DNA of 64,000 nt from NCBI GenBank assembly GCA_021768085.1, contig JAETOJ010000013.1:2448-66447 (forward strand), in the 5' to 3' direction. Position 1 is the first letter of the stretch, and each line of letters starts with the position of its first letter. Under the pieces are notes generated by a model that saw nothing but the letters and a program-made list of their open reading frames with translations, had not been told where the DNA came from and did no database searches. Positions 55,081 through 64,000 of the stretch are shown here, piece by piece. Position numbers and translations under genes: made by a program. This stretch comes from Bacillota bacterium. Lineage in GTDB: Bacteria > Bacillota > Clostridia > Oscillospirales > Oscillospiraceae.

Positions 55081-55120
55081 CATGCGAAAAAGTCTGCCCT
55101 CGGGCAGACTTTTTTGCATG
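55081..55120. terminator. Long inverted repeat / terminator after the lyase gene
   Basis: catgcgaaaaagtctgccc-tc-gggcagacttttttgcatg. Confidence 0.75.
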
Positions 55121-55257: not shown

Positions 55258-55286
55258 TTGAAAATCAGCGCCTCTTGTGATATGCT
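55258..55286 (+). promoter_or_regulatory. SigA-type promoter of the dlt-like operon
   Basis: TTGAAA-17 bp-TATGCT. Confidence 0.55.
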
Positions 55287-55424: not shown

Positions 55425-56954
55425 ATGGTTTACAATGTGACGTCCTGTTTGGACAATTCCGCCGGAGCCTATCCCGACAAAATTGCAGCGGCGGACGGGC
55501 AGGCTGCGCTGACCTATGGGCAGCTACTGGATCAAGCCCGCCGGATCGGAACCGCGCTGGCCGGCAGGCTGGACGGCGCCCGAGGCAAGCCGGTGTTCAT
55601 TTGCATCGGCCGCTGGGTGGAGTGCCTGCCCGCGTTTTTCGGCACTGCCGCCAGTGGCAATTTTTATGTGCCCATCGATCCCAGCCTGCCCGACCGGCGG
55701 CTGGCGGAGATCTATGCCACCATGAAGCCCCGGGTGGTTGTCACCACCCGGCGGGATACCCGGCCCCTGCCCTTCCCCGGCGCAGAGATCCTGTCCCTGG
55801 AAGAGCTGCTTTTGACCCCGCCGGACGAGCCGCTGCTCCGCCGGATCGGGGTAGAGATCACCGGAGAAAACCCGCTGTACTGTATCTTCACCTCCGGCTC
55901 TACCGGCGTGCCCAAGGGCGTGCTGGTGAGTCACCGCTCCGTCCTCAACATGACGGAGCAGTTCACCGAGGCCTTCGGGCTGGATCACACGGCGGTGTTC
56001 GGCAATCAGGCCCCTTTTGACTTTGACGTCTCAGTGAAGGATATCTACCTTACCATCCGAACCGGCGCCAGGCTGGAGATCCTGGAAAAGCCGCTGTTCT
56101 CCTCCCCTCGGCGGTTGATCGAGCGGATGGACGAGCGGGGCGTGAACACCATCATCTGGTCTGTCTCCGCTATGAAGATTCTCTCTGCGCTGAAGACCTT
56201 TGAGACGGTTCGGCCCAGCCATCTGCGCCGGGTAATGTTTTCCGGCGAGGCCATGCCCTGCAAGGTGCTCAACGACTGGATGCGTCATCTGCCGGAGGCC
56301 CGCTTTGTCAACCTGTACGGACCTACAGAGATCACCTGCAACTGCGCCTATTATCCGGTGGATCGGGCCTTTGATGACAGCGAGGCGCTGCCCATCGGCG
56401 GGGCCTTTCCCAACACCCAGGTGTTTTTGCTGGATGGGGATCGGGCGGTCACCGGGCCCGGCGAGCCGGGGGAGATCTGCGTGGCCGGAACCTGCCTGGC
56501 CCTGGGCTACTACAATAACCCGGAGCGCACTGCCGCGGTCTTCTGCCAGAATCCGCTGCAGACGGCCTGGCCGGAGAAAATTTACCGCACCGGAGATCTG
56601 GGCAGCTGGAACGAGCGGGGCGAGCTGATGTTTTTGGGCCGGGCGGACTCCCAGGTCAAGTATATGGGGTTCCGCATCGAGCTGGGTGAGATCGAGACGG
56701 CGGCCAATGCCGTCCCCTTTGTATCCTCCGCCTGCTGCCTGTTCGACGCTGACCGGGAGCAGCTGTGCCTGTTCTACCAGGCGGAGGGGCAGGACGACAA
56801 GGGGCTCATCGCCGCCCTGCGGGAGGCGCTGCCCCGGTTTATGGTGCCCGCGCGGCTATACTGGTTTGAGCGGCTGCCGGAGAACCGCACCGGAAAAATT
56901 GACCGCGCCGCGCTCCGGCGCGACTATATTGAGCAAACGATCAGGAGGAACTGA
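55425..56954 (+). CDS. Stand-alone adenylation domain protein (DltA-like AMP ligase)
   Basis: A3 FTSGSTGVPKG, A4 FDVSV, A5 NLYGPTE, A7 YRTGDL, A8 GRADSQVK..GFRIELGEIE, A10 GKIDR. Confidence 0.92.
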   Translation: MVYNVTSCLDNSAGAYPDKIAAADGQAALTYGQLLDQARRIGTALAGRLDGARGKPVFICIGRWVECLPAFFGTAASGNFYVPIDPSLPDRRLAEIYATMKPRVVVTTRRDTRPLPFPGAEILSLEELLLTPPDEPLLRRIGVEITGENPLYCIFTSGSTGVPKGVLVSHRSVLNMTEQFTEAFGLDHTAVFGNQAPFDFDVSVKDIYLTIRTGARLEILEKPLFSSPRRLIERMDERGVNTIIWSVSAMKILSALKTFETVRPSHLRRVMFSGEAMPCKVLNDWMRHLPEARFVNLYGPTEITCNCAYYPVDRAFDDSEALPIGGAFPNTQVFLLDGDRAVTGPGEPGEICVAGTCLALGYYNNPERTAAVFCQNPLQTAWPEKIYRTGDLGSWNERGELMFLGRADSQVKYMGFRIELGEIETAANAVPFVSSACCLFDADREQLCLFYQAEGQDDKGLIAALREALPRFMVPARLYWFERLPENRTGKIDRAALRRDYIEQTIRRN

Positions 56955-56957
56955 ACC

Positions 56958-57185
56958 ATGGAAAAGCTGCTGCGTATTCTGGAGGAAAACTGCCCCGGGA
57001 TCGACGTTCTGGGGAGTGACCGGCTGATTGACGACGAGATTTTGACCTCTCTGGATGTGGTGGTTCTGGTGGGGGAGCTCAATGACGCCTTCGGCGTGTC
57101 CATCACGGTGGACGACCTGGTGCCGGAGAATTTTAACTCCGTTCAGGCCATGTATGATCTCATCTGCCGGCTCGGGGGCAAGTAA
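56958..57185 (+). CDS. Carrier protein (DltC/ACP-like)
   Basis: 75 aa, acidic; ILTSLDVV contains the phosphopantetheine Ser; PENFNSV. Confidence 0.88.
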   Translation: MEKLLRILEENCPGIDVLGSDRLIDDEILTSLDVVVLVGELNDAFGVSITVDDLVPENFNSVQAMYDLICRLGGK

Positions 57186-57188
57186 GCG

Positions 57189-58766
57189 ATGTCAGTCAAC
57201 AGCGCCGCCTTCCTGCTGTTTTTGGCCGTGGCGGTGGCCGTCTATTACCTGGTGCCCAAGCGAGGGCGGTACCTGGTACTGCTGGCGGCCAGCGCGTTCT
57301 TCTACCTGTGCTACAGCCTGAAGGCCGCGATCTATCTGCTGTTTACCGTGGCGGCCACCTATGGCGCCGCCCTGGGTCTGGGCGCCCTGCGCCGCAGGGA
57401 GCGGGCAGAAGCGGCGGCGGAAGGGGCGGACGCAGCGGCTGTCAGGCGGGTCTGGCTGAGGCGCCGGCGGCTGGCGTTGACCGCCATTTTGGTGCTGAAC
57501 TTTACCACGCTGGCCCTGTTCAAGTATCTGGACAGCTGGCTGGGAACCGCCAACAGCGTGCTGGCGCTGGCAGGGCTGTCCTTCCGGTTCCGGCCGCTGG
57601 AGCTGCTGCTGCCGCTGGGGATCTCCTTTTATATCTTCCAGACCTCCGGCTACCTCATCGATGTCTACCGGGGAAAAGTGGAGCCGGAGCGGCACTTTCT
57701 GAAGTACGCGCTCTTTGCCGCCTACTTTCCCCAGATGATCCAGGGGTCCATCAACCGCTTCCAGAAGCTCCAGCCCCAGCTGATTGGGGGAAACGAGTTC
57801 TCCGCCGATCAGTTCAAGTACGGCGTGCAGCTGATGATTTGGGGAATGCTGAAAAAGCTGCTCATCGCGGACACCCTGGCCCCGGCGGTGACCGAGGTGT
57901 TTGACCACTTCACCCAGTACAGCGGCGCGGTGATTCTGCTGGCCGTCGTCCTCTACTGCCTCCAGCTCTACTGCGATTTCTCGGGGGGCACCGATTTAGT
58001 CCGAGGCGCCTCCCAGCTGTTCGGGGTGGAGATGATGGAGAACTTCCGCCGCCCCTACTTTGCCCATACCGTGGACGAGTTCTGGCGGCGGTGGCACATC
58101 TCCCTGGGGGAGTGGATGAAGGACTACCTCTTTTATCCCCTGGCCCTATCTAAGGGGCTGAACCGGCTGGGGAAGGCCCTGCGCCCGGTGGTGGGTCCCC
58201 GGCTGGGCAAGCTGGCGGTGCCCTGCATTTCCACTTTGGTGGTGTTCCTGATGGTGGGCATCTGGCAGGGACCCGGTCTGAGCAACATCGCCTATGGGTT
58301 GTGGAACGGCGGACTGATGTCCCTGGCTATGATAGCCCAGCCGGCGTCGGTGAAGCTCCGGGAGCGGCTGGGGATTGGGCACGAAACCCGGTGGTTCCGC
58401 GTGGTTCAGGTGGCCCGCACCTTCGCGCTGGTGGTGGTGGGGCGGTATTTCTCCCGCTCCAGCCAGCTGCTCCAGGCCCTGCGGATGCTCAAGCGGACGG
58501 TGTGCAGCTTCGGCTGGCGCTCCCTGGGCCCGGACGCGCTGTTCAGCTTCGGCCTCACTCCGGTGAATTGGGCCGTCCTGCTGATCTCTACGGCGGTTCT
58601 GGTGGCGGTCAGCGCCCTTCAGGAGCGGGGGATCCCCATCCGGAAGACCCTGGAGAAAAAGCACTGGGCCATTCAATTCACGGTGCTTTTTGTGGGAATT
58701 CTGGTGATTTACGTCTTTCTCAGCGGAGATTACATCCCCGCGGGCTATGTGTACGAAAGCATTTAG
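57189..58766 (+). CDS. MBOAT family acyltransferase (AlgI/DltB-like)
   Basis: PLGISFYIFQ, YFPQ, YCDFSG, NFRRPYFA...FWRRWHISL; VGIWQG at the position of the usual GxWHG. Confidence 0.92.
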   Translation: MSVNSAAFLLFLAVAVAVYYLVPKRGRYLVLLAASAFFYLCYSLKAAIYLLFTVAATYGAALGLGALRRRERAEAAAEGADAAAVRRVWLRRRRLALTAILVLNFTTLALFKYLDSWLGTANSVLALAGLSFRFRPLELLLPLGISFYIFQTSGYLIDVYRGKVEPERHFLKYALFAAYFPQMIQGSINRFQKLQPQLIGGNEFSADQFKYGVQLMIWGMLKKLLIADTLAPAVTEVFDHFTQYSGAVILLAVVLYCLQLYCDFSGGTDLVRGASQLFGVEMMENFRRPYFAHTVDEFWRRWHISLGEWMKDYLFYPLALSKGLNRLGKALRPVVGPRLGKLAVPCISTLVVFLMVGIWQGPGLSNIAYGLWNGGLMSLAMIAQPASVKLRERLGIGHETRWFRVVQVARTFALVVVGRYFSRSSQLLQALRMLKRTVCSFGWRSLGPDALFSFGLTPVNWAVLLISTAVLVAVSALQERGIPIRKTLEKKHWAIQFTVLFVGILVIYVFLSGDYIPAGYVYESI

Positions 58767-58775
58767 GAGGTGCCC

Positions 58776-60611
58776 ATGTCTTCTAAAAAATGGCTCGTCA
58801 TGCTCCCTCTCACCCTTCTGCTGGTCATGGGCTGCTGCGCGGTGTTCAATATGCTCATTGACCCCTTCGGGGTATTCGGTGACCCCATTTTGGACTGGTA
58901 CAGCTACAATGAAACCAACAATCCCCGGGTGGCCAAGCTGGCCTGGTTGGATGAGCACTACCAGCAGTACGACTCCTATGTGATCGGCTCCTCCTCCGCG
59001 GCCTCCTACAACGTGGAGGAGCTCAACGACTATCTGGACGCCAGCTTCTACAACCTGTTCGTCTATGGCTGCGACACCAGAGATTATCGGGATTTTGCCG
59101 CCTATGTACTGGAGCACTACACGGTGAAAAATATTGTGCTCAACCTGGGTATCAATGAGGCTGTCTATTACGACGAGGGGGAGGACGACCTTAACGGCAG
59201 GATGCACGCCAAGGCCAGTGGTAGAAGCCTTCCGCTGTTCTACCTGGAATACGCGCTGACTACCACCCTACAATCGGTGGAAAAGCTGGCGTTCCGGCTT
59301 CGGGACACGGAGCTGCCACAGGTGTTCGACGTGTTCCTGGTGGAATCGGGATGCTACGACAAGCGGGTGCGGGACGTGGAGAAAATCGGCGATCCCGCCG
59401 TCTATGATCGGGCCTACACCGGGGAGTTTTCCACCTCGGAACAAGGGGGACAACTTCCCTATGTCAAGGAGTGCGCCCAAATGGTGGCCGAGATCCGGGA
59501 TCTGTGCGCGGAGCGTGGGGTCAATTTGATGGTGATCACCTCCCCCGTCTACGCGGGCCAGTGGAATGCCTATGAGGAGAGCGCCCTGAGAGCCTACAAG
59601 ACGGCGTTGGCCGAAGTGACAGATTACTGGGACTTCAGCTGTACCCCCATCTCCTATGACAACCGCTATTTTTACGATCAGACCCATTTCCGCAACGCGG
59701 TAGGTACCATGGTGCTGGCGGAGATCTTCGGGAACGACCAGGTCTGGCGGCCGGAACGGTTCGGAGCCTGGATCACCGCGGGCAACTGCCAGACCTATCT
59801 GGACGGGCTCTTCTCTGATCCCCCCACGGCGAAGGTGGAGGACTACACGGCGGACGTTCCGGTGCTGCTTTACCACAGCATTGTGGAGGAGCCGGGCAGC
59901 TATTTAGAGGTGTCCCCGGAGACCTTTGACGCGCAGATGCGATTTCTGGCGGAAAATGGCTATCACGCGGTCACAACCCAGGAGCTTATTGACTATGTCT
60001 ATCACGGAGGAGAGTTGCCAGACAAGCCGGTGCTCATCTCCTTTGACGACGGCTATCAGAACAACTATGACTATGCGTGGCCCATTTTGAGGGAGCACGA
60101 CCTGAAGGCCACGATATACGCCATCGGCGTATCGGTGGGCCATGACCGCTATAAGGACACTCAGTTTGAGATGACCCCCCACTTTGGCTTTGAGGAGGCC
60201 CGTCGGATGGTGGAATCCGGCGTGATCGACGTGCAGTCCCACACCTATGATATGCACCAGTGGCCCCCCTTTGAGTCGGGGGATCGGATCCGGCAAACCA
60301 TGGCCCCGCTGGAGGGCGAGATCTATGATGACTATGCCGCTGCCCTGAACAGGGATGTCGCCGCCTACAACCAAATCGCAAAAAAAGAGCTGGGCTATGA
60401 GTTCACATCCCTGGCCTTCCCCGGCGGCGACTATACGACGCTGACCGAGGTGCTGGTGCACCAGGCGGGCATCCCGGTGACGATGTCCACCCGGACGGAC
60501 AGTCGCAATATCCTGGTGCGGGGCTTGCCCCAAAGCCTCTATGCGCTGTCCCGCTGGTCTGTTATGGAGGAAACCACCCAGGCTGACCTGCTGGAGGTGC
60601 TGAACGGATAG
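58776..60611 (+). CDS. Membrane-anchored SGNH-like (DltD/AlgJ-type) domain fused to a CE4/NodB polysaccharide deacetylase (IcaB/PgaB-like)
   Basis: N-terminal TM, IGSS and DQTH motifs; C-terminal PVLLYH, ISFDDGY, SHTYDMH, LAFPGG. Confidence 0.82.
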   Translation: MSSKKWLVMLPLTLLLVMGCCAVFNMLIDPFGVFGDPILDWYSYNETNNPRVAKLAWLDEHYQQYDSYVIGSSSAASYNVEELNDYLDASFYNLFVYGCDTRDYRDFAAYVLEHYTVKNIVLNLGINEAVYYDEGEDDLNGRMHAKASGRSLPLFYLEYALTTTLQSVEKLAFRLRDTELPQVFDVFLVESGCYDKRVRDVEKIGDPAVYDRAYTGEFSTSEQGGQLPYVKECAQMVAEIRDLCAERGVNLMVITSPVYAGQWNAYEESALRAYKTALAEVTDYWDFSCTPISYDNRYFYDQTHFRNAVGTMVLAEIFGNDQVWRPERFGAWITAGNCQTYLDGLFSDPPTAKVEDYTADVPVLLYHSIVEEPGSYLEVSPETFDAQMRFLAENGYHAVTTQELIDYVYHGGELPDKPVLISFDDGYQNNYDYAWPILREHDLKATIYAIGVSVGHDRYKDTQFEMTPHFGFEEARRMVESGVIDVQSHTYDMHQWPPFESGDRIRQTMAPLEGEIYDDYAAALNRDVAAYNQIAKKELGYEFTSLAFPGGDYTTLTEVLVHQAGIPVTMSTRTDSRNILVRGLPQSLYALSRWSVMEETTQADLLEVLNG

Positions 60612-60856: not shown

Positions 60857-61699
60857 TCATGATGCCGACCCCGTATGGCAATCCTCAAGCGGGCCGGCGT
60901 CCGCTCCCCAGACCTCTATCTGCGTCAACGCGGGGAACGGAGAGGGATCGTCCTCGTCCTTGATCAGCCGCTCCAGCTTCAGCCAGCGCACCACCCGTGG
61001 CGCAAGATCAATCTGCTGAGGTTCGCCGGTTTTGACAAACTCCGCTCGGATCTGTGAGCCATCGGAAAACTGGACGCTGCACTGCTTCCACCAGTTGTCA
61101 TGGGGAAAGTCCGCCCGAAGCGTAAACACCAGGCGATCCACCCGCACCTCGCGCCCGAACTCCAGCAACAGCTCCGCCTCCGGATCCCGGTTGATCCCCC
61201 AGCTCTGGTAGGGCCAGGCGCCGTGGCTGCTGTTGGCGTAACAGCCGTCAATGGCGTTGCGGGCGGCAAAGACCGATTCCCCCCGTGTTTCCACATTGGC
61301 CGAAGCGTGGGGGAAAAATCCCGTGTTGTCATGGCTGTCCAGGGGGTTGAGCGCCAGATTCCGGTAGGCGCCTGCCTCCCGGGGGCTGGCCTGCCTGGCC
61401 CACAGTAGATGGACGTCCCCCGTAAAGGATTTGGGGGAATAGCTCACCCGCTTTTCCCCAAAGGGCACCGCCAGGCAGAACTCGCCGGACAGGTAGCCAA
61501 AGGTTTCCGCCATGCTGTCCTCCAGCAGGGCCACCACATAGCCAGGGGCGCTGCCGCTCATGCGGATCACATCCCCCTCCACATAAGGCGCGGCGTACAC
61601 CAGGGTCACATGATCCCGCCCGCTGGCCTGGGCCTTTACCTGTCCATCCGCCCCGGTAATTGTAATGCTCAGTTCCATTGTGCTGTGCTGAATCTCCAT
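60857..61699 (-). CDS. Carbohydrate-binding protein (galactose-binding/discoidin-like fold)
   Basis: YRNLALNP, FAARNAIDG, SWGINRDPEAELLLEFGR, LRADFPHDNWW; GGAGG RBS. Confidence 0.7.
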   Translation of the reverse strand: MEIQHSTMELSITITGADGQVKAQASGRDHVTLVYAAPYVEGDVIRMSGSAPGYVVALLEDSMAETFGYLSGEFCLAVPFGEKRVSYSPKSFTGDVHLLWARQASPREAGAYRNLALNPLDSHDNTGFFPHASANVETRGESVFAARNAIDGCYANSSHGAWPYQSWGINRDPEAELLLEFGREVRVDRLVFTLRADFPHDNWWKQCSVQFSDGSQIRAEFVKTGEPQQIDLAPRVVRWLKLERLIKDEDDPSPFPALTQIEVWGADAGPLEDCHTGSAS

Positions 61700-61729
61700 A
61701 AGAGCCCTCCTATCATGGTTTGTCCATCT

Positions 61730-63460
61730 CTATACGCTGCCTGTCACCAGGGTGACCAGCCGATGGGTTCCCGCCTCCAAATGCAGGCGGATTGTCGGGA
61801 TACGGGTAAGGGGGTGAAGCAGGTTGGTGTTGGGCCAGGCCTTCACCAGCACCGGGCTCCCGCCGCCCTGCTCGCACCGAATGCCGCTGACGCCCCAGGG
61901 GAAGCGGGCGGTGACCCCGTCCTGCGTCCACTCCACCATGTCCTCGGAATAGGGCAGGCCATCCTGCTCCGCCGGAATGGCGAAGCCGCCGTCGGCCACG
62001 TCGATGGGCCGGTCGGTGGTGATCACATAGCTGCGCCGGTGGCTGGGGAAGCAGGGCGTCACCGTAACCTCCACCGTCACCCCACGCAGGGGGGAAAAGC
62101 GGCGCCAGATATGATCCGGTTCCGCCCGGAAGCCGTCAAACCCCCGCTGCATCCGCCAGTGCTCCTCCCCCGCCTCGCTCACCGCCAGGCAGTTGTCAAA
62201 GGCCCCTTCCTCCAGGCTGTCCCCCCGGGGCACGGAGAACCCAAAGCGGCTGGAATAGACCAGCTTTTCATACTTAGCTGCCACCTGCCCCAGCTGATTG
62301 ACGCACATCTGCCCCGCCGGGAACAACTGCACCTGGTTGGGGGCGCGGGCCGCCAGCATCCGGGCCTGTGGGAGGAGCTTCTGCTCCGCCAGCTCCGGGA
62401 TCTCCTCCCGTGCCTGCCAGAAGGGGTGCTCCTCGGGCAGCGCCAGACACAGAAACGCCTTCAGCCCCCAATAGGGTGAGCCGGGGGCGTTGTACGCTTC
62501 GCTCATGAACAGGTTCGGGTAGCCGTAGCCCACGGTCAAAAGCCCGCTGGAGTCAAAAATCGGCTGGGCCAGCCAGTCCCGTAGGTTGCCCAGAAGCCGC
62601 GATTTGAGCACCCCCCAGGGCAGGCACTCCACCCCCGCGAAGGCCAGCGCGGCAAAGAATGCGCCTTGCCCAAACCGGTAGGTTAGGCTCCGCCCAAAGG
62701 GCACCGCCCGCCCGCAGTCCTCAAACCAGTACAGATAGTCCCGGGCAAACTCTGCCGCCCGCTCCTTGAACCGGCGGCTGCGCTCGGGATCTTCCTTCTC
62801 CATGCACCAGGCGTAGATCAGGCCGTAGTAGTGCATTCCAAAGGGAATATAATAATCCATCTGGGTGGGCTCACCGTCGCAGTACCAGCCGCCGCCCAGA
62901 TACCAGCCCTCCAGCCGCCCAAGGTCGTCCTCCAGCCGCTCCGCGTCCCAATCCCAGCCCATGCGCCGGAAGGCGGCCTGGATCAGCACCCGGAAAAAGA
63001 GCCAGTTGTTTTGGGGCAGTCGTAGCTCCAGCGTGGCGGATAGCCACCGGTGCAGGTTCCGGGCCTCCCGCTCCGACAGTGCCAGCCGATCCCCACAGAG
63101 CATCAGCGTGACGGAGATGGCCGCCATCTCCACGATTTTCTGATCGCAATCGAAGGGATCCCCCCAGTAGGCGGGATGCTCCGGATCGGTGCCGTTTACC
63201 AGTCCCTCCCGGAACAGGGGCAGCCACGATTCCCCCCCGCCTTGGCTCCACAGGGGGCCCAGCCCCCACAGCATTCGGGAAAACGCCTCCATCCGGGCGG
63301 AGCGCTCCCCATAGTGGGCGGCGTGATCCCCCAGGTGCAGCCCGGCGTTTCCGGTGGTAAAGCGGCCCCTGATCGGCTCTAAAAGCCGTAAAAGGGCCCG
63401 CTCCACATCCCCGCGGGTGCGCAAGGGATTTTGAGAAAGTGGCAGATCAAATCGTTCCAT
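61730..63460 (-). CDS. DUF2264 domain-containing protein
   Basis: MEAFSRMLWG, GTDPEHPAYWG, DQKIVEMA, NNWLFFR, GWYCDG, GRSLTYRF, ESYN/EAYNAPGSPYW motifs; GGAGG RBS. Confidence 0.88.
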   Translation of the reverse strand: MERFDLPLSQNPLRTRGDVERALLRLLEPIRGRFTTGNAGLHLGDHAAHYGERSARMEAFSRMLWGLGPLWSQGGGESWLPLFREGLVNGTDPEHPAYWGDPFDCDQKIVEMAAISVTLMLCGDRLALSEREARNLHRWLSATLELRLPQNNWLFFRVLIQAAFRRMGWDWDAERLEDDLGRLEGWYLGGGWYCDGEPTQMDYYIPFGMHYYGLIYAWCMEKEDPERSRRFKERAAEFARDYLYWFEDCGRAVPFGRSLTYRFGQGAFFAALAFAGVECLPWGVLKSRLLGNLRDWLAQPIFDSSGLLTVGYGYPNLFMSEAYNAPGSPYWGLKAFLCLALPEEHPFWQAREEIPELAEQKLLPQARMLAARAPNQVQLFPAGQMCVNQLGQVAAKYEKLVYSSRFGFSVPRGDSLEEGAFDNCLAVSEAGEEHWRMQRGFDGFRAEPDHIWRRFSPLRGVTVEVTVTPCFPSHRRSYVITTDRPIDVADGGFAIPAEQDGLPYSEDMVEWTQDGVTARFPWGVSGIRCEQGGGSPVLVKAWPNTNLLHPLTRIPTIRLHLEAGTHRLVTLVTGSV

Positions 63461-64000
63461 CCCACATCGACCTCCAATCAGTATCAATAGTTGCATTTGT
63501 AATAAAGTAGATGGAACAGAGGTTCCACGAATAGTAATCTCCCGGTTGTGGGAAATAGGATGCGTCCCGAGGAGGAGCAGGCTCGCGCCCGCCTGGTGTC
63601 TTGTAGCACCGCCGCCAGGCAACAGAACAAGCCGTGTCCGAATATCCGCCAGCTCCCATATACTCGTAAAGTAACTATATAATACCTGAAAAAAAGGAGG
63701 TTGTCCACTCAATATTTTCTGCTCGCGGGATAGCCTCCCTCTGCGTCCTTTTCTGGAAAGTAGCCGCGAGACGGGGCACAGCGCAGGGACATGATAGAGG
63801 GGCTTTCGTTGTCTGCCACGGATGCACCATCTACTGGAAGATGGGAAAAATGGTTGGACGAGGGAGAACTAATTATCTCCAGACAGGTGAAAACCCTCCT
63901 TCGGATCCGCTGCAATCAAAGCGTAATCAAACGAAGGAGGGGGTTCACTGGCAGAAACGGCATATCAATAAGGAGGTAAAAAGCGCAGGCAATATTGGCC

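Follow-up and report, generated by a model that had tools for sequence, protein, structure and literature searches.

Glutamine in place of the conserved MBOAT histidine in a clade of Dlt-like operons from gut Clostridia

Membrane-bound O-acyltransferases (MBOATs) are described in reviews and recent mechanistic papers as carrying a histidine in every member of the family, where it is treated as the catalytic base (PMC12148441, PMC8061759). Here we examine an MBOAT gene of a Bacillota bacterium (Oscillospiraceae; assembly GCA_021768085.1) in which this residue, at position 360 of the protein, reads glutamine. The gene lies in a stretch of 64,000 nucleotides (nt; positions 2,448 to 66,447 of contig JAETOJ010000013.1), referred to as the window, whose positions serve as coordinates throughout; MBOATs with Gln or His at position 360 are termed Q-type and His-type, respectively. 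The question raised by this locus is whether such a protein reflects an error, a decayed enzyme, or a lineage that has reorganized its active site. We show that Gln360 has become fixed, and is maintained by selection, in a distinct clade of Dlt-like MBOATs from gut and rumen Oscillospiraceae and related Clostridia.

The glutamine site and its conservation

The gene and the residues on which the argument turns are as follows.

57189 to 58766, + strand: MBOAT of 525 amino acids (aa) with a fused C-terminal acyl-shuttle tail, beginning 4 nt past the stop codon of a carrier-protein gene
57633 to 57635, + strand: Ile149, which is Thr in His-type relatives and in DltB (Thr130), from the DltB alignment and the comparison of the Q clade with His types
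58095 to 58097, + strand: His303 of W-R-R-W-H, equivalent to DltB His289, a second active-site residue kept in 112 of 113 Q-type sequences, at a position that is Asn or Asp in eukaryotic MBOATs and the His of W-x-R-W-H in bacterial ones
58263 to 58295, + strand: remodelled catalytic motif W359-Q360-G-P-G-L-S-N366-I-A-Y369, with the Gln360 codon CAG at 58266-58268
58746 to 58763, + strand: C-terminal tail Y-V-Y522-E523-S-I, a variant of FxYxxF, with the Tyr522 codon at 58752-58754

The codons atg gtg ggc atc tgg cag gga at 58251-58271 are in frame within this open reading frame, whose peptide here runs M-V-G-I-W-Q-G-P-G. When the protein was searched with phmmer against all PDB chains, the sole matches were to Streptococcus thermophilus DltB (6BUG and 8JEM, E ~1e-18), with 'mvgiwqg' placed opposite 'vmgfwhg', so that Gln360 pairs with the catalytic His336 of DltB (chain index being equal to residue number), and the homology of the two positions is secure. 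The hallmark MBOAT His (His336 in DltB, His315 in PatA, His379 in HHAT) is therefore absent from this protein, as it is clade-wide. A preliminary description, made from the sequence alone, had proposed both that Gln stands in place of the MBOAT catalytic His and that the His of the upstream RRWH motif is retained; the former is borne out by the reading frame and the DltB alignment, and the latter by the presence of His303.

Assignment to the family is supported by a match to Pfam MBOAT (PF03062) at 45.4 bits, against a cut-off of 27, a match which is also precomputed for all homologues. Furthermore, the AlphaFold2 (AF2) model, built on 125 homologues (pLDDT 93.3, pTM 0.91), retrieved DltB as its best Foldseek match (6BUG/8JEM, E 8e-14 to 2e-12), followed by HHAT, PORCN, LPCAT3 and MBOAT7. 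The protein is a member of the MBOAT family by descent and fold, yet its active site is not canonical. With the DltB equivalog model TIGR04091 (NCBIfam) it scores 142.4 bits, below the cut-off of 375, and it is therefore no DltB orthologue. At the C-terminus, Tyr522 is invariant throughout the 125-sequence alignment, and both Phe positions of FxYxxF are altered, the hexapeptide reading Y-V-Y-E-S-I here and [YF]-V-Y-E-[NST]-[VI] in the core Q clade. The same genome contains three further MBOAT genes, at least two of them with canonical W-H-G and F-x-Y-x-x-F motifs.

One third-position change interconverts His and Gln codons, and a sequencing error or a strain-private, one-base loss-of-function mutation (CAC or CAT to CAG) could in principle have produced the residue. 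The probability of this is, in our judgement, close to nil. In an alignment of the query with the 120 best-scoring 90%-identity clusters from 5.8 billion proteins (121 sequences), Gln occupies the position in 115, down to ~45% identity; the remaining six carry His and read G-I-W-H-G-A-S-W-K-Y. Some of these clusters hold hundreds to thousands of member sequences, and the residue thus recurs in thousands of metagenomic sequences. Among species-representative genomes, we recovered 33 independent loci of the clade, each from a different species and 44-97% identical, and G-x-W-Q-G-P-G is present in all 33. These derive from Oscillospiraceae, Evtepia, Oscillibacter, Faecousia intestinalis and other Clostridia of the human gut, the rumen and other guts, and include the cultured carriers Faecousia intestinalis CLA-AA-H192 (L061) and Oscillospiraceae bacterium 50-58 (L039). 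The Gln codon is identical in an independent metagenome-assembled genome (L035, 97% identity), which excludes a base-calling error in this assembly.

The manner in which the residue has been kept also points to selection. Across the 33 loci the Gln360 codon is CAG in 32 and CAA in one, while every synonymous form occurs among the neighbouring Gly and Pro codons, which indicates that the site has been held as Gln over a long divergence despite His being one transversion away. dN/dS values of 0.09-0.23 (eight pairs) indicate purifying selection on the gene, which stands in an intact operon. Whether Gln is fixed across species, a check that the preliminary description had called for, is thus answered in the affirmative, and of the two alternatives it offered, the one-base loss-of-function allele is refuted by the counts in both samples, by the dN/dS values and by the intact pathway, while that of a sub-family gains support from the clade-wide fixation of Gln.

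Origin of the clade and the changes that accompany Gln360

In a 50%-identity library the glutamine is rare, being present in only four (P0069, P0129, P0136 and P0244) of the 150 best representatives, against at least 119 with His. Phylogenetic trees (FastTree on 83 sequences; IQ-TREE under LG+G4 on 32) resolve the core Gln clade as monophyletic with 99% support. All the Gln forms group together with one His sequence (P0124) at 93-96% support (96% where the group comprises 16 Gln sequences and this one), and this group nests among His-bearing proteins of equal length. The data do not reject a single origin of Gln (p-AU 0.22); branching near P0124 and P0113 is weakly resolved. Gln thus arose, on the evidence of these trees, inside one well-supported clade of a His-bearing family with the same operon. 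The basal Gln forms keep a His-type neighbourhood around the residue (W-Q-G-G-S-W-K-F in P0129 and W-Q-G-S-S-W-K-W in P0113) and a tail of the form F-I-Y-x-x-V, which tentatively suggests that the change from His to Gln came first, followed by the P-G turn and Asn366 and then by the Y-V-Y-E tail. A metagenome scan seeded with P0113 returned only relatives of 38-48% identity.

The genome sets that we searched are samples, and within them the distribution of the operon is uneven. Two genomes of the same genus (G248 and G386, each 99% complete) yielded no orthologue at E 1e-110 or better when searched with P0124, and in a first order-level sample the best match to the window protein outside its own genome was 43% identical; together these suggest that the operon is accessory and patchy.

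A comparison of 34 core Gln with 88 His sequences shows that few positions separate the two types: Ile149, Thr152, Leu221, Pro345, Gln360, Pro362, Gly363, Asn366, Met377, Phe497 and Glu523, with the clade-linked substitutions T149I, F221L, P345, H360Q, A362P, S363G, Y366N, I377M, W497F and x523E. Q360, P362, G363 and N366 are each found in 100% of the core Q clade and in 0-12% of His types. Of these, P362-G363 form a Pro-Gly insert-like turn, and Asn366 replaces a Tyr of the His types (DltB Tyr342). Elsewhere, Phe497 replaces a Trp, and Ile149 is the residue of 91% of Q-clade sequences and of 8% of His-type ones, 72 of 88 of the latter having Thr. Glu523, which adjoins the acceptor Tyr522, is present in 97% of Q types and 12% of His types, where position 523 varies. 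No newly gained His, Lys or Asp was found elsewhere in the MBOAT in this comparison, Glu523 being the only such gain; Cys257 is enriched in Gln types, but is also present in 15% of His types.

Set against these changes is the extent of what has been retained. Across 113 Q-type sequences, the residues that map to the active-site and inhibitor pocket of DltB (F147, L260, Y261, D263, F264, W299, W302, H303, W359 and Y369) are each at least 97% conserved, as is Y522. The carrier-protein Ser motif x-S-[LI]-[DNS] is kept in 29 of 29 Q-type loci, the motifs G-S-S-S, D-x-T-H, D-D-G and H-T-x-D-x-H of the partner protein are conserved, and gene order is syntenic in nearly all Q-type loci. The conservation of the pocket, the acceptor Tyr, the carrier Ser, the partner motifs and the gene order argues for remodelling of one site rather than decay.

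Operon partners and His-type sister operons

The MBOAT is the third gene of a tightly packed four-gene operon, whose other members are the following.

55425 to 56954, + strand: DltA-like amino-acid adenylation enzyme, 509 aa, operon gene 1 (PF00501, PF13193, TIGR01733)
56958 to 57185, + strand: carrier protein, 75 aa, with the phosphopantetheine-attachment Ser in L-T-S-L-D (PF00550, E 1.8e-6)
58776 to 60611, + strand: membrane-anchored DltD-like (SGNH-type) domain fused to a PgaB/IcaB-like CE4 de-N-acetylase, 611 aa (PF01522, PgaB/IcaB NCBIfam matches)

The adenylase exceeds the cut-off of the amino-acid adenylation domain model TIGR01733 (350 bits) and falls below that of the DltA equivalog (290 bits, cut-off 560). 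The GGAGG ribosome-binding site of the DltD-like/CE4 gene overlaps the MBOAT stop codon. In the AF2 model of its product (pLDDT 90.9), Foldseek relates the N-terminal domain to DltD (7DXM, 6PFX, 3BMA and 6O93) and the C-terminal domain to PgaB/IcaB-type CE4 enzymes (4U10, 3VUS and 4WCJ). The donor-supply genes, encoding the adenylating enzyme and the phosphopantetheinyl carrier protein, adjoin the MBOAT gene and are conserved in the clade, except that in six loci no adenylase gene was found upstream. It is not adjacent to the carrier gene in the Q-type loci L038, L042, L043, L044 and L048, and none was found in the shorter upstream sequence of L047; in L038 and L042 the genes upstream of the carrier gene encode RecR and ribulose-phosphate 3-epimerase. 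The activating enzyme of these loci must consequently be encoded elsewhere or shared. In a further Q-type locus (L063:8508-9539 onward) the DltD-like partner is only ~502 aa with no CE4 domain detected, and the CE4 fusion is therefore not obligatory within the clade.

This arrangement shares features with two known systems. As in the DltABCDX system of teichoic-acid D-alanylation, whose DltB (S. thermophilus, 6BUG and 8JEM) is the best match to the window MBOAT in both sequence and fold, the donor is supplied by a DltA-like adenylase and a DltC-like carrier, and the partner has the DltD fold; the His of W-x-R-W-H is kept, together with a Tyr nine residues past the catalytic position (Tyr345 in DltB, Tyr369 here). 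Unlike in the Dlt system, Gln replaces His336, the partner bears a CE4 de-N-acetylase, the adenylase scores below the DltA cut-off and there is no dltX gene. The window MBOAT is ~110 residues longer than DltB owing to a C-terminal fusion of DltX-like helices and the Tyr motif. A C-terminal FxYxxF acyl-shuttle motif is fused to the MBOAT in PatA/PatB-type MBOAT-SGNH O-acetyltransferases, also represented by AlgI and WssH (PMC12148441), with which the window system has in common the two extra C-terminal helices, an invariant Tyr in the terminal hexapeptide and an extracytoplasmic transferase of SGNH type as a separate protein. These systems differ in using acetyl-CoA as donor with no carrier protein, in their required His (PatA His315) and in the motif F-x-Y-x-x-F, as opposed to [YF]-V-Y-E-[NST]-[VI]. 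The system is thus a hybrid, in which Dlt-like donor supply is combined with a PatA/AlgI-like fused tyrosine tail.

More closely related are His-type sister operons in Oscillospirales genomes and gut metagenomes (e.g. L071-L073, L109, L110, L113, L133 and L177), which have the same gene order and the same DltD-like/CE4 fusion, and whose MBOATs are 37-46% identical to the window protein, of equal length and with a Tyr tail. They differ in the motif W-H-G-[AG]-[SN]-x-[KR]-[YF], in Thr149 and in the tail F-I-Y-x-x-F, and most possess a GNAT gene. The preliminary description had wanted a check on whether Gln is accompanied by the SGNH-CE4 fusion. The two do occur together; the fusion does not, however, distinguish the Q-type operons and is rejected as a correlate of Gln, since it is equally present in His-type L071-L073, L110, L113, L133, L137, L177 and others.

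The GNAT gene (L071:7897-8670(-), L072:5080-5982(+) and L073:7773-8570(-); also in His-type L074, L109, L110, L112, L113, L126, L133, L136, L137, L157, L161 and L188) lies between those for the adenylase and the carrier protein, and encodes a product of 257-300 aa with a C-terminal GNAT domain. Its presence suggests that the carrier-bound amino acid may be N-acylated in these sister operons. No GNAT gene occupies this position in any of the 33 Q-type loci or in the window. Furthermore, all Q-type loci that have the adenylase gene alongside share its pocket motifs FDFDVSVKD and GPTEITCNC[AT], and the nearest His-type operons have other ones. Both patterns would be expected if the chemistry of the system had changed, such that a more reactive donor (for example a free aminoacyl rather than an N-acylated thioester) or a different acceptor rendered the His dispensable and Gln better suited. 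We nevertheless judge this explanation improbable. His-type operons without a GNAT gene but with the same DltD-like/CE4 partner exist (L177, L179, L182, L183 and L122), so that loss of GNAT could have been at most permissive; the exact Q-type motifs FDFDVSVKD and GPTEITCNCT recur beside His-type MBOATs (L119, L123, L140, L160, L163 and L166), and a new donor acid is accordingly rejected as the sole cause of Gln; and DltB itself uses a free aminoacyl thioester yet needs its His. Neither partner, GNAT nor donor acid alone accounts for the change from His to Gln.

Additional variation was observed among the His-type operons. The branch comprising L119, L123, L140, L160, L163 and L166, an abundant group of gut metagenome contigs, is marked by F-W-H-R-W-H ... 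V-W-H-G-P-A-W-K-F and the tail G-G-F-I-Y-A-Q-F, and has a ~1.26 kb gene between adenylase and carrier, with no DltD-like/CE4 gene detected downstream. In L111 (G308:C29) two tandem DltD-like genes follow a His-type MBOAT, and in L075 (G068:C32) two MBOAT paralogues are located either side of one adenylase/carrier pair.

Predicted chemistry of the remodelled site and surroundings of the operon

What, then, does an MBOAT do with Gln at this position? We consider it fairly probable, from conservation and analogy with characterized relatives, that the Q-type protein is a still-working acyltransferase whose active site has been remodelled and not lost. Retained chemistry at the MBOAT is argued for by the invariance of Tyr522 and the full conservation of the pocket. 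In the pathway that we propose, the adenylase would load an amino acid onto the carrier protein, the phosphopantetheine arm of which would deliver it by way of the MBOAT tunnel, for transfer of the acyl group to the MBOAT's own C-terminal Tyr522. From there the DltD-like domain would pick it off and place it on a GlcNAc-type polymer, the same polymer that the fused CE4 domain is predicted to de-N-acetylate. Activation of Tyr522 would have to proceed without the usual base, for which the candidates are His303 (DltB His289), the clade-specific Glu523, or both; Gln360 and Asn366 could take only hydrogen-bonding or positioning roles.

Published work on related enzymes provides several parallels for such a scheme. 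The Tyr of the FxYxxF acyl-shuttle motif takes the acyl group in DltX and PatA before the SGNH partner does, and the His of DltB and PatA is thought to act as base in acyl transfer from the thioester donor to this shuttle Tyr (PMC12148441). In DltB, His289 shares the pocket with His336, and the sulfonamide group of an inhibitor sits between the two (PMC11035591). That an MBOAT can work without this His follows from purified HHAT, in which the H379A substitution causes only a ~twofold loss of activity (PMC8061759). HHAT H379A resembles the Gln clade in the residue it has lost; it differs in being a laboratory mutant of a eukaryotic enzyme with an acyl-CoA donor and a protein acceptor, as opposed to a natural lineage.

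A number of considerations weigh against an active enzyme. Gln is unable to serve as a general base. The predicted placement of His303 and Glu523 close to Tyr522 and Gln360 comes from homology with DltB and PatA models. Glu523 is missing from the basal Gln forms P0129, P0113 and P0136, and cannot therefore have been the original compensation. In addition, the His315Ala substitution in PatA abolishes auto-acetylation, and the equivalent His is reported to be required in both DltB and PatA (PMC12148441). These last requirements, together with the inability of Gln to deprotonate a phenol, are also what would favour the main rival reading, a non-catalytic MBOAT, a pseudoenzyme that docks the loaded carrier and threads its phosphopantetheine arm across the membrane, so that Tyr522 would attack the thioester uncatalysed, or the DltD-like domain would do so directly through its Ser; a channel or relay role of this kind had already been put forward in the preliminary description. 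We think such a conduit rather unlikely, given that only the His has been altered while the pocket residues, His303 and Tyr522 remain at least 97% conserved at the dN/dS values given above, and that an invariant acceptor Tyr with a newly fixed adjoining Glu is hard to explain if the site is idle.

If the Q-type MBOATs are instead active, His would not be an obligatory general base for formation of the acyl-tyrosine intermediate in bacterial envelope acylation. Literature searches for MBOATs that naturally lack the His, or have Gln in its place, gave no relevant paper. That the clade represents the first MBOATs in nature to be catalytically active in the absence of the 'universally conserved' His, its role having been taken over by His303 (in a swapped dyad) and/or Glu523, is a more tentative proposal, for which our doubt slightly outweighs our confidence. 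Nevertheless, a large clade, subject to purifying selection and abundant in gut metagenomes, that has replaced the active-site His alone while keeping pocket, acceptor Tyr, donor supply and partner, constitutes a natural experiment on MBOAT mechanism and a clean, testable exception to a textbook 'invariant' residue, for which the closest His-bearing sisters with the same operon offer matched controls for residue swaps. In common gut commensals the operon probably serves to attach an amino acid to a surface polymer of GlcNAc type, a modification that bears on surface charge and host interaction.

In the sequence flanking the operon, a sigma-70-like promoter match with an extended -10 TG occurs at 55258-55286, ~140 nt 5' of the adenylase start, and a terminator-like hairpin at 55092-55105 follows the preceding gene, of the DHDPS (dihydrodipicolinate synthase) family; both are consensus matches only, and are consistent with 55425-60611 forming one transcription unit. 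Downstream of the operon lie two overlapping open reading frames, at 60857-61699 (- strand, 280 aa) and 61409-62479 (+ strand, 356 aa), with no Pfam match for either, followed by a DUF2264 gene at 61730-63712 (- strand).

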